From assembly GCA_965203615.1 (NCBI GenBank), contig OZ241900.1:3879350-3943349 (forward strand): a stretch of 64,000 nt of DNA, written 5' to 3'. Origin of the DNA: Candidatus Azotimanducaceae bacterium. GTDB taxonomy: Bacteria; Pseudomonadota; Gammaproteobacteria; Pseudomonadales; Azotimanducaceae. The notes under the pieces were generated by a model. That model saw only the letters and a list, made by a program, of their open reading frames with translations. It did not search any database and had not been told where the DNA came from. Positions 42,101 to 52,568 of the stretch are shown piece by piece; position 1 is the first letter of the stretch, and each line of letters starts with the position of its first letter. Position numbers and translations under genes: made by a program.

Positions 42101-45031
42101 ATGAAGACGCGACGCAAGCAGGTCAAGAGACGGGCGTGCACCACGTTCGGCCCCGCAACGTGGAACAGGAGGCCGTTGGGGGTTGCCATCTCGGCCGCAC
42201 TGGTGACCACTGTTGCAGGTGCTGCCGAAGTCGAAGCCGCCGAAGCCGCAGACCAGACGCGGGGCATTGAAGAGGTCATCGTGACGGCCACCAAGCGGGC
42301 CGAATCCATCCAGGACATCGCGGTATCCGTTTCGGCCTTGCAGGGTGAAGATCTCGACGAATTGAGAATCAACAGCTTTGACGACTACGTCAAGCACCTG
42401 CCCAATGTGGTCATGATGGGCGTCGGCCCCGGGCAGAGCGAAATTTATATCCGGGGTGCGGCCACGGAGCAGTCCAAGAACACTATCGCCAGTATCCAGG
42501 GCTCGTCGCCAGCCACCGCCCTTTACCTGGACGAGCAGCCCGTCTCCTTCGGCGGCCGCAACCTCGATGTCTACGTCACCGACATGAGTCGCATCGAGGT
42601 GCTGCCGGGTCCGCAGGGCACGCTGTTCGGCGCCAGTTCCCAGTCCGGGACCGTGCGTCTCATCACCAACAAGCCTGACACTCTGCGGTTCCAGGGTGGC
42701 GTCGGTGTCAGCGCCTCGACCACGGCGGATGGCGGTGTCAGCAACGCCCAGGAAGCGTTCTTCAACATGCCCGTTTCAGACCGTGCGGCGGTGCGGGTGG
42801 TCGGTTATCGCGACAGCCAGGCCGGCTGGATCGACAACATCCCGAACAATCCGGGGAACGGAGGGTTTTCGCCGAGCATAGACCTGCTCAACCGGAACGA
42901 CATATCGGGTGCGCCGGTGCATCCGGACAGCCCATTCGAGGCCGCGGACAACAGCCGCCTGGTCGAGGACGACTTCAACGATGCGAGCTACGCGGGTGCC
43001 CGCGTCAGCCTCTCCTACGACGTCACCGACGATTGGGGAGTACTGGTGCAGCACGTGCAGCAATCCCTGGAGACCGACGGCGTCTTCGCCTACGACCCCA
43101 ATCTCGACGGCGAGAACAGCGTCAACCGGTTTACCATGGACAGCACGGCCGACGACTTCGGGCTGACGACACTGACCGTCAGCGGTCGGGCCGGCATGCT
43201 GGATGTGATCTATGCGGCCGGCTACCTCGACCGGGAGGTGGAGGCTCTCGTCGACTATTCGGACTACACCAACGGCGGCGGGTACCAAGCCTACTACCTG
43301 TGCACCGGCACCAGGGACTGGGGGGGCAACGGATTCGAGGGGTATGGCGGAACCGTGGGATTGAGCGAGTGCTGGGACCCCGAGGCCCAGTACGAAGAGG
43401 AGACCACGAACAGTCGGACTACCCACGAGTTCCGCATTTCCACACCCCAGGAAAACCAGATCAGCGTCACTGCCGGCGTCTACCTCGACGATCAGACAAC
43501 CACTGGCGTGGCTGCCTTCGAGGATGCGGCGACACGGGATGACGGCGACGGCTCCTGGCCCGTGCTTGCCATGATTGGCGACCAGGGAGAAGGGACGAAT
43601 GCGAGTCCCACCGTGCCATTCAACGGCGCGGTCAGTTTCGTCAACGACTACACGCGCAAGATCGATCAGGTCGCGGTGTTCGGTCACGTCGATTTCGCGG
43701 TTTCGGACAGCGTCACAGCAAGCTTCGGCGCCCGCTGGTACGACCTGAACTTCGACTTCAAGGGGGCGAGCAGCTTCTCGTTCGGGTGCAAGTTCGGCAC
43801 GGACAACTGCGATTCCAGCGTTGGCCGGGGCGGTTTTGATGCCACCAGCCGGACCTCCGGGAACAACGTCACCGAACGCCTCAGGGCGCTTGGGCGGGGA
43901 ACGCTTGATGCTCTCACCACGGTGAACCTCAGCGAATGCCGTCCAGACGCGACCAGGTGTCGGGGCGGACATGTGGACATGTTCGGCGGAAGCGGCGCGG
44001 AAGCGGTGCTGGCCGACATTCAGAGCGGCGCCCTGAACGTCGAGAACCTGAACGAGGACGGTGTTCTGAACGAGTCGGACGTCATTCTCCGCGCGTCGCT
44101 CGACTGGAGGGTCAACGACAACCTGATGGTTTTTGCCACTTTCGGTCAGGGTTTCCGGCACGGGGTCACGAACCGGAACGCCGGGAAGGCCGCCAACAAT
44201 CCGCGTGGATTGCCGGTCTACGACGGCTACCGGGTGCCCGCCATCGCTCTCACCGACCACATGGACAACTTCGAACTGGGCATGAAGGGGGACTTCGCCG
44301 ACAACACCCTGCGGCTCAACGCGACGGCTTTCGCCTCGGAGATCACGGACCTGCAGGTCTCCCGGTTCGACCCGGCCAACGTGGCATTCCTGGTGTTCAT
44401 CGAGAACGTTGGAGACGCGGAAGTCCGTGGCGTCGATGCCGACTTCACTTGGCTTGCGATGCCCAATCTCCTGATATCGGGCGCGGTCAGTCTCGTTAGC
44501 AGCGAGATCACCCGCATCAACCCGCAGTTGCGAGAGATAGCCGTGCCGGAGGGCAGCGAACTGCCATTCTCCCCGGGATTCTCCGGTAGCCTGCAGGCGC
44601 GATACGACTTCCATGGAGCGTTCGACGGACAGACCAACGTCTATCTAACCGGCAGCATCAGCTATTCGGGTGAGAGCAAGTCGGGCATTGCTGGCAGCGC
44701 CTACTTTGTTGAGGACACGCTCAAGCGCAGCCATGGCGGACGAGGCTCCGGCCTCAAGATCGCCAATGAAGGCGGCATCTTCGCCGGTGGTAACTGCGGC
44801 ACTTACGACGCGGAGAGCTTCTGCGCGAACGGCCGTTACGTCCAGGGCGCCTATACGCTGCTGGATGTGGCCGTCGGCGTCACGAGGGACAGTTGGAGTG
44901 CGGAACTGTTCGTGGACAACCTCACGGACACGCGTGCGCAACTGCATGTTGATACATTGCAGTACGTGCCGAAGGTCGTGACCAATCGGCCGCGTACCAT
45001 AGGCTTGCGCGTCTCGTACGATTTCGACTGA
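42101..45031 (+). CDS. TonB-dependent receptor (large, ~975 aa)
   Basis: Signal peptide 'GVAISAALVTTVAGAAEVEA', plug 'IEEVIVTATKRAESIQD', and a C-terminal '...RTIGLRVSYDF' barrel terminus. Start is 42101, or alternatively 42083. Confidence 0.85.
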   Translation: MKTRRKQVKRRACTTFGPATWNRRPLGVAISAALVTTVAGAAEVEAAEAADQTRGIEEVIVTATKRAESIQDIAVSVSALQGEDLDELRINSFDDYVKHLPNVVMMGVGPGQSEIYIRGAATEQSKNTIASIQGSSPATALYLDEQPVSFGGRNLDVYVTDMSRIEVLPGPQGTLFGASSQSGTVRLITNKPDTLRFQGGVGVSASTTADGGVSNAQEAFFNMPVSDRAAVRVVGYRDSQAGWIDNIPNNPGNGGFSPSIDLLNRNDISGAPVHPDSPFEAADNSRLVEDDFNDASYAGARVSLSYDVTDDWGVLVQHVQQSLETDGVFAYDPNLDGENSVNRFTMDSTADDFGLTTLTVSGRAGMLDVIYAAGYLDREVEALVDYSDYTNGGGYQAYYLCTGTRDWGGNGFEGYGGTVGLSECWDPEAQYEEETTNSRTTHEFRISTPQENQISVTAGVYLDDQTTTGVAAFEDAATRDDGDGSWPVLAMIGDQGEGTNASPTVPFNGAVSFVNDYTRKIDQVAVFGHVDFAVSDSVTASFGARWYDLNFDFKGASSFSFGCKFGTDNCDSSVGRGGFDATSRTSGNNVTERLRALGRGTLDALTTVNLSECRPDATRCRGGHVDMFGGSGAEAVLADIQSGALNVENLNEDGVLNESDVILRASLDWRVNDNLMVFATFGQGFRHGVTNRNAGKAANNPRGLPVYDGYRVPAIALTDHMDNFELGMKGDFADNTLRLNATAFASEITDLQVSRFDPANVAFLVFIENVGDAEVRGVDADFTWLAMPNLLISGAVSLVSSEITRINPQLREIAVPEGSELPFSPGFSGSLQARYDFHGAFDGQTNVYLTGSISYSGESKSGIAGSAYFVEDTLKRSHGGRGSGLKIANEGGIFAGGNCGTYDAESFCANGRYVQGAYTLLDVAVGVTRDSWSAELFVDNLTDTRAQLHVDTLQYVPKVVTNRPRTIGLRVSYDFD

Positions 45032-45046
45032 TGGGCTGAGGCCCAT

Positions 45047-45078
45047 GCAAGGGGCAGTCGGTGTAGCCTGCCCCTTGC
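45047..45078 (+). terminator. Stem-loop, candidate intrinsic terminator after the receptor gene
   Basis: GCAAGGGGCAG (45047-57), a 10-nt loop, then CTGCCCCTTGC (45068-78). This is a perfect 11-bp stem followed by a weak T-containing tail (GCAATCGATTTG). Confidence 0.45.
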
Positions 45079-51499: not shown

Positions 51500-51572
51500 G
51501 GCGTGCCACTCCTGCCGCCTCCGAAAGGTGATGATGGCGGCGGCGGACAGGGTGTCAAGCGATAACGCGATG

Positions 51573-52568
51573 CTATTCCACGGCCGCCCCGACAAGCTTC
51601 CAGGCATAGTCGAGTGAATGCCGCAGCGAGTCGGTGAACGCCTCGCCGCGCCAGGCGATGTCGAAGGCGGTGCCGTGATCGACGGAGGTGCGGACGATGG
51701 GGAGTCCGATCGTCACGTTGACGGCGGATTCGAAACTCGCAAGCTTCATCGGGCCGTGACCCTGGTCGTGATACATGCACACGATGCCGTCGAAGCGGTC
51801 GCGGTGGATCGCCTGGTAGAAGACCGTGTCGGCGGGGTGGGGACCGGATGCGTCGATACCGTCGCGCCGCGCCGCCTCGATGGCCGGAGCGATGATCTCC
51901 GATTCTTCCGAGCCGAACAGTCCATTCTCGCTCGCGTGGGGATTCAATCCGCATACGGCGATTCGGGGGTGGGGAAGAAAGCGCGATAGCGTCTGCTGCG
52001 TCAGTTCGATCACCGAACGCACGCGTGGCAAGCTGACGTGGCGAATCGCGTCGGCGAGCGACATGTGTGCGCTGACGTGCGTGACCGCCACATCTTCGGT
52101 GGCGAGCATCGGGCAGAATTCCTCAACGCCGCAAAGCGCGGCGATCAACTCGGTATGGCCGATGAACTCCGGATCACTTGCGCGGGTCGCCTCCTTGTTC
52201 ATCGGCATCGTTACGATGCCCGCGATGCGTCCGGCCAGCGCATCCCGCGTCGCCGCTTCGACGTAGTCCCGCGCTGCCGCGCCAGCCTTTGCGTTGAGTC
52301 GGCCCGGTGTCAGGTCTGCAGCGTCGAGGCGTTCGAGATCGACGACGTTGAGACATCCCCGTCGTGCCTGGAGAGGGTCGTCGACGACGTTCGCGAGAAC
52401 ATCGAGGCCAAGCAGGCCGGCACCGGCGTCGAGGATCGCCGCATCGCCGTAGACGACCGTGGCGTCATCCAGCGACCCCTCGGCGAAACGTCTCAGAACG
52501 ATTTCGGGCCCGACGCCGGAGGCATCGCCCATCGTGATCGCCAGGGGAAGTGATGACTTCGGTTTCAA
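51573..52568 (-). CDS. PdxA-family NAD-dependent dehydrogenase (4-hydroxythreonine-4-phosphate dehydrogenase paralogue)
   Basis: 'LAITMGDASGVGPEI', 'GHTELIA', 'VSAHMSLADA', 'GLNPHASENG', 'YHDQGHGP', 'VRTSVDHGTAFDIA'. The start codon is TTG at 52568 and is uncertain. Confidence 0.8.
   Translation of the reverse strand: MKPKSSLPLAITMGDASGVGPEIVLRRFAEGSLDDATVVYGDAAILDAGAGLLGLDVLANVVDDPLQARRGCLNVVDLERLDAADLTPGRLNAKAGAAARDYVEAATRDALAGRIAGIVTMPMNKEATRASDPEFIGHTELIAALCGVEEFCPMLATEDVAVTHVSAHMSLADAIRHVSLPRVRSVIELTQQTLSRFLPHPRIAVCGLNPHASENGLFGSEESEIIAPAIEAARRDGIDASGPHPADTVFYQAIHRDRFDGIVCMYHDQGHGPMKLASFESAVNVTIGLPIVRTSVDHGTAFDIAWRGEAFTDSLRHSLDYAWKLVGAAVE

Follow-up and report, generated by a model that had tools for sequence, protein, structure and literature searches.

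A conserved TonB-receptor-linked gene module with predicted hydroxylation and sulfation functions in a methylated-amine island of Candidatus Azotimanducaceae

What brings a TonB-dependent receptor (TBDR), three sulfotransferases and two Fe(II)/2-oxoglutarate (2OG)-type hydroxylases together in the DNA of a Candidatus Azotimanducaceae bacterium? The question is raised by a stretch of 64,000 nucleotides (assembly GCA_965203615.1, contig OZ241900.1, positions 3,879,350 to 3,943,349 of the forward strand), here called the window, in which these genes and a pdxA gene lie between positions 42101 and 52568. A preliminary description, made from the sequence without database searches, had proposed that the seven genes make or remodel a hydroxylated, sulfated molecule (peptide, lipid or osmolyte-like). 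All seven genes, with the motifs ascribed to them, were recovered by open reading frame (ORF) listing and profile searches. The reading that we prefer, with a probability of roughly 40%, is that the system couples a receptor to the hydroxylation and sulfation of an amino-acid- or betaine-like molecule, and is tied to a methylated-amine island.

The genes form two converging operons. On the plus strand, the receptor gene (42101-45031; 976 aa; Plug and TonB_dep_Rec_b-barrel domains in Pfam) is followed by two genes whose products join tetratricopeptide repeats (TPRs) to a sulfotransferase (ST) domain: TPR-ST1 (45190-47229; 679 aa; Sulfotransfer_3, 164.7 bits; motif PRAGSTL) and TPR-ST2 (47257-49041; 594 aa; Sulfotransfer_3, 120.7 bits; motif PRSGTTL). 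On the minus strand, a PhyH-family Fe/2OG hydroxylase gene (50663-51502; 279 aa; PF05721, 107 bits) leads to a small sulfotransferase gene, sST (50013-50666; 217 aa; motif PRTGTHA), and to the gene of an "AspH"-domain protein (49060-50022; 320 aa), called the hydroxylase below; its 320-aa model is chosen because more than 100 homologs span 315-327 aa. The stops and starts of the minus-strand genes had been described as overlapping. They do so between PhyH and sST (4 nt, GTGA) and between sST and the hydroxylase (10 nt), and sST is predicted to be translationally coupled to the latter; the PdxA stop and the PhyH start, however, are separated by about 70 nt if the gene model is chosen to fit homolog lengths, by which the most likely PhyH start is 51502 (MEQTV...). 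In a hydropathy scan the enzymes showed neither signal peptide nor transmembrane (TM) segment, and they are therefore presumably cytoplasmic.

How far does this arrangement extend beyond the window? A scan of a genome collection, anchored on the hydroxylase, gave 80 loci with hydroxylase identities from 84% down to 53%, whose neighbors were identified by tblastn with the window proteins. The loci belong to Candidatus Azotimanducaceae, other Pseudomonadales, Rariloculaceae, Woeseia, Arenicella, Cellvibrionaceae and unclassified Gammaproteobacteria. The sST gene adjoins the hydroxylase gene in 61 of 76 loci; a TPR-sulfotransferase gene lies within the hydroxylase flank in 56 of 72 (directly convergent in 44 of the 72), and a TBDR gene, the first of an operon with a TPR-sulfotransferase gene, does so in 46 of 67. 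The conserved unit comprises four to five genes, a TBDR followed by one or more TPR-sulfotransferases, convergent with sST and the hydroxylase. The proposed set of seven was too large, as PhyH is present in only about 11 loci and PdxA in eight. In the Woeseia and Arenicella loci, the receptor gene is followed by TPR-ST and sST, with the hydroxylase convergent; in one further locus (L083), M24 and MR_MLE genes follow ST1 and ST2 in the receptor operon, which again converges on sST and the hydroxylase. Because the five genes occur together in unrelated flanks (L081/82 and L084), they behave as a unit. In Woeseia, Arenicella and unclassified Gammaproteobacteria, they still adjoin each other at hydroxylase identities as low as 53-57%. 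The suspected functional link of receptor, TPR-sulfotransferases, sST and hydroxylase is thus supported by synteny over several gammaproteobacterial families, by gene shuffling and by domain fusions.

The receptor and its TPR-sulfotransferases behave as an exchangeable cassette among the closest relatives. In eight of these (L001-L007 and L009), sST, hydroxylase and regulator are 77-93% identical to those of the window, and a different receptor (45% identity) and a single TPR-ST (54%) occupy the same position. Only L008 among the closest relatives has the receptor, ST1 and ST2 of the window type, and TPR-ST2 occurs in the locus set only together with a window-type receptor. Recombination confined to the N-terminal part of the two receptor types was considered and rejected, as their identity is low over the whole length. 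One locus (L040) retains a truncated ST1-type remnant beside the other type of cassette.

The most direct clue to what the enzymes do together comes from natural gene fusions. A search of 1.84 billion representative proteins with a profile of the hydroxylase family gave 3822 relatives, of which 322 reach E <= 1e-30. Of the 150 best-scoring relatives, 75 are at least 450 aa long and 68 (about 45%) carry a C-terminal domain that resembles the TPR-ST catalytic domain by BLASTP; none carries an sST-like one. By Pfam, the fusions (proteins P0368-P0507) combine the hydroxylase with Sulfotransfer_3 (about 600-690 aa) or with Sulfotransfer_3 and DUF4915 (TIGR03032; about 920-1070 aa). Examples come from a Burkholderiales metagenome-assembled genome (MAG) and from Crocosphaera. 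The fusion proteins lack TPRs, which indicates that TPRs are not needed for the chemistry. Such a Rosetta-stone pattern is strong evidence, the strongest obtained here, that hydroxylation and O-sulfation act on one substrate; the chemistry that it most readily suggests is hydroxylation with O-sulfation as the next reaction. We inspected six distinct fusion contexts in nine loci (L087-L095). Two of the six are TBDR operons and four have no receptor, so the receptor link recurs in independent architectures without being obligatory. One of the TBDR operons (L092/93) has the order TBDR, TPR-ST, TPR-AspH, fusion, with a convergent TPR-ST and an Opp-type (SBP_bac_5) ABC importer; the TPR-AspH of L092 is a true one (151 bits). 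The other (L094) runs TBDR, AspH, TPR-ST, fusion. In L087-L089, an SDR gene and efp (elongation factor P) come after the fusion gene. A literature search on DUF4915/TIGR03032 found nothing relevant. The fusion proteins should be handy for biochemistry, being single-polypeptide versions of the system.

Which kind of molecule would be hydroxylated? The hydroxylase had been taken for an AspH/LpxO-type protein. It does match PF05118 (46.9 bits against a cut-off of 22.6), but only over residues 68-166 of its 320, and its nearest relatives of solved structure are enzymes that act on free proline. The best PDB sequence matches are Streptomyces proline 3-hydroxylase (1e5r, type II; E 2e-6) and Mesorhizobium L-proline cis-4-hydroxylase (4p7w; E 5e-4). 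Residues H101, D103, H149 and R159 are invariant in 73 sequences; the H, D and H of the iron triad align with those of 1e5r and 4p7w, and the H-x-D...H...R spacing is identical. An AlphaFold (AF2) model built on the 73 sequences (pLDDT 89.7) had 4p7x, 4p7w and 1e5r as its top Foldseek matches in the PDB (E 3e-11 to 2e-9). The alignments run over about 280-345 columns, most of the protein, with TM-scores of only 0.37-0.52 and identities of 12-17%, so that the substrate specificity of the proline hydroxylases is not transferable. Since the fold matches span most of the protein, the last ~130 residues, noted earlier as an extra C-terminal region, correspond to the helical domain of the proline-hydroxylase subgroup. 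AspH entries rank tenth and lower (E ~4e-7 to 5e-6; TMq ~0.37) and match the oxygenase core only. By sequence and model, then, the hydroxylase is closest to the free L-proline 3-/cis-4-hydroxylases and not to classical AspH. The likeness to 1e5r and 4p7w/4p7x extends to solubility and similar size; unlike the window enzyme, the free L-proline hydroxylases have no link to sulfotransferases or receptors. At the RSR and R-x-H positions, two arginines of the window enzyme, R88 and R113, have aligned counterparts in the 4p7w chain, R105 and R130.

With AspH, LpxO and OlsC the hydroxylase shares the PF05118 match, but the AspH fold match is weaker (E ~1e-6), and the window protein has neither TPRs (Pfam) nor a TM segment (maximum 19-residue hydropathy 0.98). 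Human AspH uses two His only, whereas the window protein has the full HxD...H triad. An LpxO/OlsC-like lipid hydroxylase was set aside for lack of a TM segment, and among peptide, lipid and osmolyte, a lipid looks the least likely product.

The TPR-sulfotransferases would supply the second reaction. TPR-ST1 has about ten TPRs and a TPST/CurM-like Sulfotransfer_3 domain, with no signal peptide or TM segment, and its catalytic domain matches the CurM ST domain and TPST1/2 in PDB sequence searches. Sixty-eight TPR-ST sequences from the loci fall on two conserved patterns. The ST1 type keeps GLPRAGSTL, TMELH, F(I/V)DKMPNN, RRxPMACCFS and RTPSxEQV, the last three being FIDKMPNN, RRSPMACCFS and RTPSSEQV in the window protein. 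The ST2 type keeps GFPRSGTTL, AEES, VDRFALN, LRHPADCVLS and RTASYNQV. The preliminary description named missing catalytic residues as a possible failing. ST1 does not have it: the 5'-phosphosulfate-binding (5'-PSB) loop, the 3'-phosphate-binding (3'-PB) motif and the catalytic Glu and Lys are present and align with the TPST and CurM motifs. ST2 has the loops for 3'-phosphoadenosine 5'-phosphosulfate (PAPS), but throughout its clade the catalytic-site Lys is replaced by Arg (VDRFALN), and its activity is plausible as judged from the motifs. The two proteins had been called paralogs; both are there, but they are distant, with 28% identity in the catalytic domain.

Human TPST1/2 and Xanthomonas RaxST share with the TPR-STs the Sulfotransfer_3 fold, the 5'-PSB and 3'-PB loops, the position of the catalytic Glu and the S-x-x-Q-V motif. 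The TPR-STs differ from them in the long N-terminal TPR array and in the Arg of ST2, and the matches reach only E 1e-3 to 1e-5. The best solved-structure sequence match to the ST1 catalytic domain is with the ST domains of CurM and OLS (4gbm and 4gox; E 5e-6). CurM has a P-E-L-H-like motif, TMELH in ST1, and it sulfates a hydroxyl made earlier in its pathway. In CurM and OLS, sulfation activates the hydroxyl as a leaving group. The CurM ST works within a polyketide synthase (PKS) module on an acyl chain bound to an acyl carrier protein (ACP), followed by a thioesterase, whereas no PKS, ACP or thioesterase is found here.

The small sulfotransferase belongs to another family (Sulfotransfer_2, 48.3 bits against a cut-off of 22). 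In an alignment of homologs, P15, R16, T17, T19, H20, H56-G57-H58, R83, P85, R88 and S91 are invariant, and with them the P-loop PRTGTH, the GHGH motif and R-x-P-x-x-R-x-x-S (RNPYDRFVS). Its AF2 model (pLDDT 87.8) had only weak, generic SULT-like matches in a fold search (E >= 6e-3).

How is the receptor controlled? The TBDR has a signal peptide, its sole hydrophobic segment being residues 25-44, and the TonB box IEEVIVTATKR, and it has no N-terminal signaling domain. A Tyr-rich, Cys-bracketed motif, DY..Y.NGGGY..YY.C...C.DP..QY, lies at residues ~385-430. It is kept in at least 90% of module-linked receptors, those of both cassette types included (alignment of 53). Divergent from the receptor gene lies that of an AraC/GATase1-type protein (40940-41917, minus strand; HTH_18 and DJ-1/PfpI domains) whose best NCBIfam match is GbdR, at 388.6 bits, under the cut-off of 480. 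The divergent arrangement is kept in 17 loci. In an alignment of the 17 intergenic regions, a block GAGT(T/G)TCGC.CTTTC...CGCACAATG near the regulator start is conserved, as is a promoter-like TTGCAA-N17-TA.TA. ahead of the receptor (block TTGC..T...TAGT..TA), both of them with either type of TBDR. The window copy of the latter would be a sigma-70-like promoter (42026-42054, plus strand; TTGCAA, 17-nt spacer, TAATAC), which a simple consensus scan left uncalled. The conserved motif GAGTTTCGCGCTTTC (41951-41965, plus strand) is a candidate regulator-binding site; it occurs once in the window, and a role as regulon-wide site was rejected on that ground. The conservation of this intergenic region makes the GbdR-like protein the probable regulator of the receptor operon.

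Between the TBDR and ST1 genes, the claimed stem-loop is real: a GC-rich hairpin with an 11-bp stem (45047-45078, plus strand) in a 171-nt spacer that folds with z = -2.8. Its U-tail is weak and a terminator scan made no call there; it may be a partial terminator or an attenuator.

The surroundings point to quaternary amines. By its predicted gene content, the window as a whole is a methylated-amine catabolic island. It encodes sarcosine oxidase (Sox) subunits, a GbcA-like Rieske oxygenase, a flavin monooxygenase, three DMGDH-like proteins, a non-Pyl MttB-family methyltransferase, a corrinoid protein, a RACo activator, a pterin methyltransferase, formate-tetrahydrofolate ligase (FTHFS), a GcvT-like protein, two AraC-type regulators and three TonB receptors. 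A quaternary-amine catabolism gene lies within 10 kb in 48 of the 58 loci with full flanks, and two or more such genes in 41. Recurrent neighbors elsewhere are carnitine/gamma-butyrobetaine genes (HACD, BKACE, ACAD, ECH and ADP-forming CoA ligase), BCCT transporters, and DMGDH, SoxA/G, GBBH-like and GbdR-like genes; TPR-ST and receptor pairs without a hydroxylase also adjoin sarcosine oxidase and FTHFS genes. The earlier hint of co-regulation with amine catabolism gains from both the 17 conserved intergenic regions and the betaine and carnitine genes in these 48 flanks. The two enzymes inserted in the operon of L083 are nearest to cis-3-hydroxy-L-proline dehydratase and DddP, both under the equivalog cut-offs, and near them are a Rieske demethylase-like gene, an OYE-type flavoprotein and MttB genes. 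These neighbors point towards proline- or betaine-type substrates. Of the parts of a TonB-dependent nutrient-utilization (CUT-like) locus, the receptor and a conserved divergent regulator are there, but BCCT or MFS transporters are present in some loci only, and the module-linked enzymes are of modifying rather than degradative type.

We suggest the following scheme. The module would be a portable pair of operons, TBDR, TPR-ST1 and TPR-ST2 converging on sST and the hydroxylase, with or without PhyH. The receptor operon would be driven from the promoter region shared with the GbdR-like regulator, and the receptor would import the substrate, or a compound related to it, through the outer membrane. 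The soluble hydroxylase would then place a hydroxyl on a zwitterionic amino-acid- or betaine-like substrate; that this is a small molecule we infer from the free L-proline hydroxylases being the best sequence and fold matches. A TPST/CurM-like Sulfotransfer_3 enzyme, here the TPR proteins, would next O-sulfate the hydroxyl. The PAPS would be made elsewhere in the genome. In line with the preliminary description, none of the window ORFs compared with Pfam was recognized as a gene for PAPS synthesis. A second sulfation and hydroxylation may be added by sST and, where present, PhyH. Instead of being covalently fused as in relatives, the enzymes may here be kept together by the TPR arrays. The system would run as part of the catabolic island for betaine, carnitine and sarcosine. 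The sulfate may serve to label the molecule or to trap it, or may make its hydroxyl a leaving group as in CurM.

Several points weigh against this scheme. The TPR stretch, about 400 residues long and strongly conserved, suggests that the partner or substrate is a protein or peptide, and both canonical TPR-AspH enzymes and an Opp-type ABC importer are encoded in sister clusters. It is for tyrosine sulfation of proteins that TPST-like domains are best known. In the related loci, no inner-membrane transporter is conserved that would connect receptor and cytoplasmic enzymes. Sulfation with PAPS carries a high cost, and we know of no precedent for it in amine catabolism. The sST-hydroxylase pairs and the fusions also occur without any receptor. 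Most loci come from a single order, which makes the context counts phylogenetically non-independent. Finally, that the counterparts of R88 and R113 bind the substrate carboxylate in cis-4-hydroxylase is only presumed.

The general idea has a precedent. Iyer, Abhiman, de Souza and Aravind (2010; PMC2938197) predicted neighborhoods with a beta-hydroxylase, PhyH and a sulfotransferase, and TBDR-linked dioxygenase/halogenase/SapC neighborhoods. The same trio of enzyme families forms the minus-strand operon here, and in both cases TonB-type receptors stand beside tailoring oxygenases and sulfotransferases. Hydroxylation followed by sulfation was proposed there, and the sections of the article that bear on it report no experimental test. 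The neighborhoods they describe also contain PAPS synthetases, collagen-like or tail-collar substrate proteins, halogenases, SapC or NRPS (nonribosomal peptide synthetase) genes, none of which is present here. The same sections do not mention TPR-sulfotransferases in a receptor operon, a proline-hydroxylase-like oxygenase, fusions or a methylated-amine context. Literature searches on TBDR-linked TPR-sulfotransferases found nothing relevant beyond that study and no characterization of such proteins, in agreement with the preliminary description. The module is a TonB-receptor-linked tailoring-enzyme neighborhood, widely conserved and uncharacterized.

Marine heterotrophs take up nutrients predominantly through TBDRs. 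Most of these lack a known ligand, and what the enzymes encoded next to them do is for the most part unexplained. The present module is common in marine Gammaproteobacteria, including sponge-associated lineages, and within islands for betaine, carnitine and sarcosine it brings together a receptor, C-H hydroxylation and PAPS-dependent sulfation. Its substrate could bring to light an unrecognized nitrogen metabolite that is sulfated, or a catabolic step activated by sulfation, in the carbon, nitrogen and sulfur cycles of the sea. Alternatively, it could reveal a new bacterial system of protein or peptide modification.

That alternative, the main rival and a serious one, which we consider possible but less likely than not, takes the TPR arrays as binders of a polypeptide. 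The TPST-like domains would sulfate a Tyr or a newly hydroxylated residue, on a chain that the hydroxylase or hydroxylases would modify as well. Candidates for this target are a peptide taken up from outside, a ribosomal peptide with its gene elsewhere, and an exported protein (for example, the co-transcribed receptor before Sec export). In its favor are the alignment with TPST1/2, including the catalytic Glu and S-x-x-Q-V, and the size and conservation of the TPR arrays, which resemble the TPR of O-GlcNAc transferase (OGT) in PDB sequence searches. The true TPR-AspH and the SBP_bac_5 importer of the sister operons fit a peptide substrate, as do the joint exchange of receptor type and TPR-ST type, the Tyr-rich, Cys-bracketed motif shared by linked receptors, and the lack of genes for scaffold biosynthesis. 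The relation of the hydroxylase to free-amino-acid hydroxylases, its lack of TPRs, and the fusions without TPRs argue otherwise. By eye, moreover, the TPRs have no OGT-like Asn ladder, and many sST-hydroxylase pairs and fusions have no receptor nearby. There is also no room for a substrate gene. As the preliminary description had it, no precursor peptide is seen: in the window and the related loci the core gaps are 3-160 bp and contain no conserved small ORF. The lone ORF in the TBDR-ST1 spacer (45045-45239; 64 aa) extends over the hairpin and into the start of ST1, and in L084 no more than 3 nt of this spacer are left. The rax system, in contrast, has an adjacent substrate peptide gene and a dedicated type I exporter; the module has neither a conserved small ORF nor a conserved exporter.

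A second alternative, the one favored by the preliminary description and by Iyer and Aravind, is that a hydroxylated, sulfated metabolite (siderophore-, signal- or osmolyte-like) is made from a common precursor, secreted and taken up again by the receptor. We regard it as doubtful. Gene arrangements of biosynthesis plus receptor are classical, and siderophore-like products were proposed for TBDR-dioxygenase neighborhoods (Iyer et al., 2010). Methanobactin clusters pair a PAPS-dependent sulfotransferase (MbnS) with a TBDR (MbnT) in one locus (PMC3621798). The module, unlike them, has no MbnA precursor, MbnB/C maturases or copper-related genes. Genes for NRPS, PKS, NRPS-independent siderophore (NIS) synthetases or maturases of ribosomally synthesized, modified peptides (RiPPs) are absent from the window and the related loci, as is a periplasmic binding protein with an ABC importer. 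The statement that the window has no exporter does not hold, for Pfam finds an RND pump with a membrane-fusion protein at 54616-58897, 2 kb from the module. This would suit secretion, but the pump is shared only with the nearest relatives, and no exporter is conserved beyond them. Regulatory signals of metal acquisition or metabolite sensing did not turn up either: the best match to a Fur box in the window is 10/19, which is background, and Rfam finds no riboswitch or other cis-RNA in it, its sole match being PYLIS_3 inside an mttB-like gene elsewhere in the window. The surroundings, too, are catabolic and not biosynthetic.

A more specific form of protein modification, which we think quite improbable, is that the substrate of the TPR-STs and their linked hydroxylases is the pre-protein of the co-transcribed receptor, or some other protein bound for export, which they would modify in the cytoplasm ahead of the Sec step. 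This would account for the strict co-variation of receptor and TPR-ST and for the lack of transporter, scaffold and exporter genes. If it were true, the ligand-binding loops of the receptor would carry sulfotyrosine and hydroxylated residues, for example in the DY..Y.NGGGY..YY.C motif, which could help to capture cationic quaternary amines. Bacteria would then have a parallel to the sulfated tyrosines and hydroxylated Asp/Asn residues of eukaryotic extracellular receptors. Least probable by our estimate, and hardly to be expected, are chance neighbors, that is, functionally unrelated receptor-TPR-ST and sST-hydroxylase pairs kept together by shared island ancestry: each pair does occur without the other (L085 and L086; L029, L032 and L064) and most loci come from related Pseudomonadales lineages, but adjacency is kept at 53-57% hydroxylase identity despite rearrangements that mix both pairs, the unit is found in unrelated flanks, and hydroxylase-Sulfotransfer_3 fusions exist, some of them inside TBDR operons.

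Two of the seven genes lie outside the conserved unit. PhyH (best PDB match 6zyk; E 3e-33) is restricted to the close loci and is an accessory member; a halogenase function was ruled out by its HxD motif. The pdxA gene (51573-52568, minus strand; 331 aa; PF04166; 4-hydroxythreonine-4-phosphate dehydrogenase), which had been counted in the set as a paralog, appears to be genuine PdxA (TIGR00557, 338.6 bits against an equivalog cut-off of 290.35). It, too, occurs only in close loci. In L004 and L005, carnitine genes part it from sST and it stays beside a radical-SAM gene. By its score and by its staying with that gene when the operon is split, PdxA is probably a bystander rather than a module member, and its candidacy as a pathway enzyme was rejected on the same grounds.

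A few observations concern other loci. In three MAGs associated with sponges (L011, L018 and L022; ~11000-17600), an insert of about 7 kb parts the hydroxylase from the TPR-sulfotransferase; it encodes a secreted sulfatase, a second PhyH-like protein and NorB/NorC-like proteins. In a Woeseia MAG (L085, 12431-21302), a TPR-ST1 homolog and a receptor adjoin four aromatic amino-acid ammonia-lyase genes and an ammonium transporter gene.

Other features belong to the island itself. Its three TonB receptors (20328-22850, 29578-31767 and 42101-45031, all on the plus strand) suggest uptake of several amine-containing substrates; the first adjoins an AraC regulator and an Abhydrolase_3 esterase, followed by two DMGDH-like genes. 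The MttB-family ORF (31836-33542, minus strand) is uninterrupted over 568 aa. As it has no in-frame stop, it is a homolog of the non-pyrrolysine, quaternary-amine methyltransferase type, and the PYLIS_3 match within it (32240-32339) probably reflects coding-sequence homology. A full corrinoid methyl-transfer set (14145-18986, minus strand: RACo reductive activator, pterin-binding methyltransferase, PF13769 protein, DUF1638 and B12-binding corrinoid protein) stands in an otherwise oxidative island of amine catabolism. The FTHFS ORF (36714-39281, minus strand) is 855 aa long with its domain at residues 323-855, which leaves ~320 N-terminal residues unexplained unless the start is wrongly called. 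At the edge of the island (3396-4167, minus strand), a CopG-antitoxin-like gene adjoins a DUF6036 nucleotidyltransferase-like gene, possibly as a toxin-antitoxin pair.

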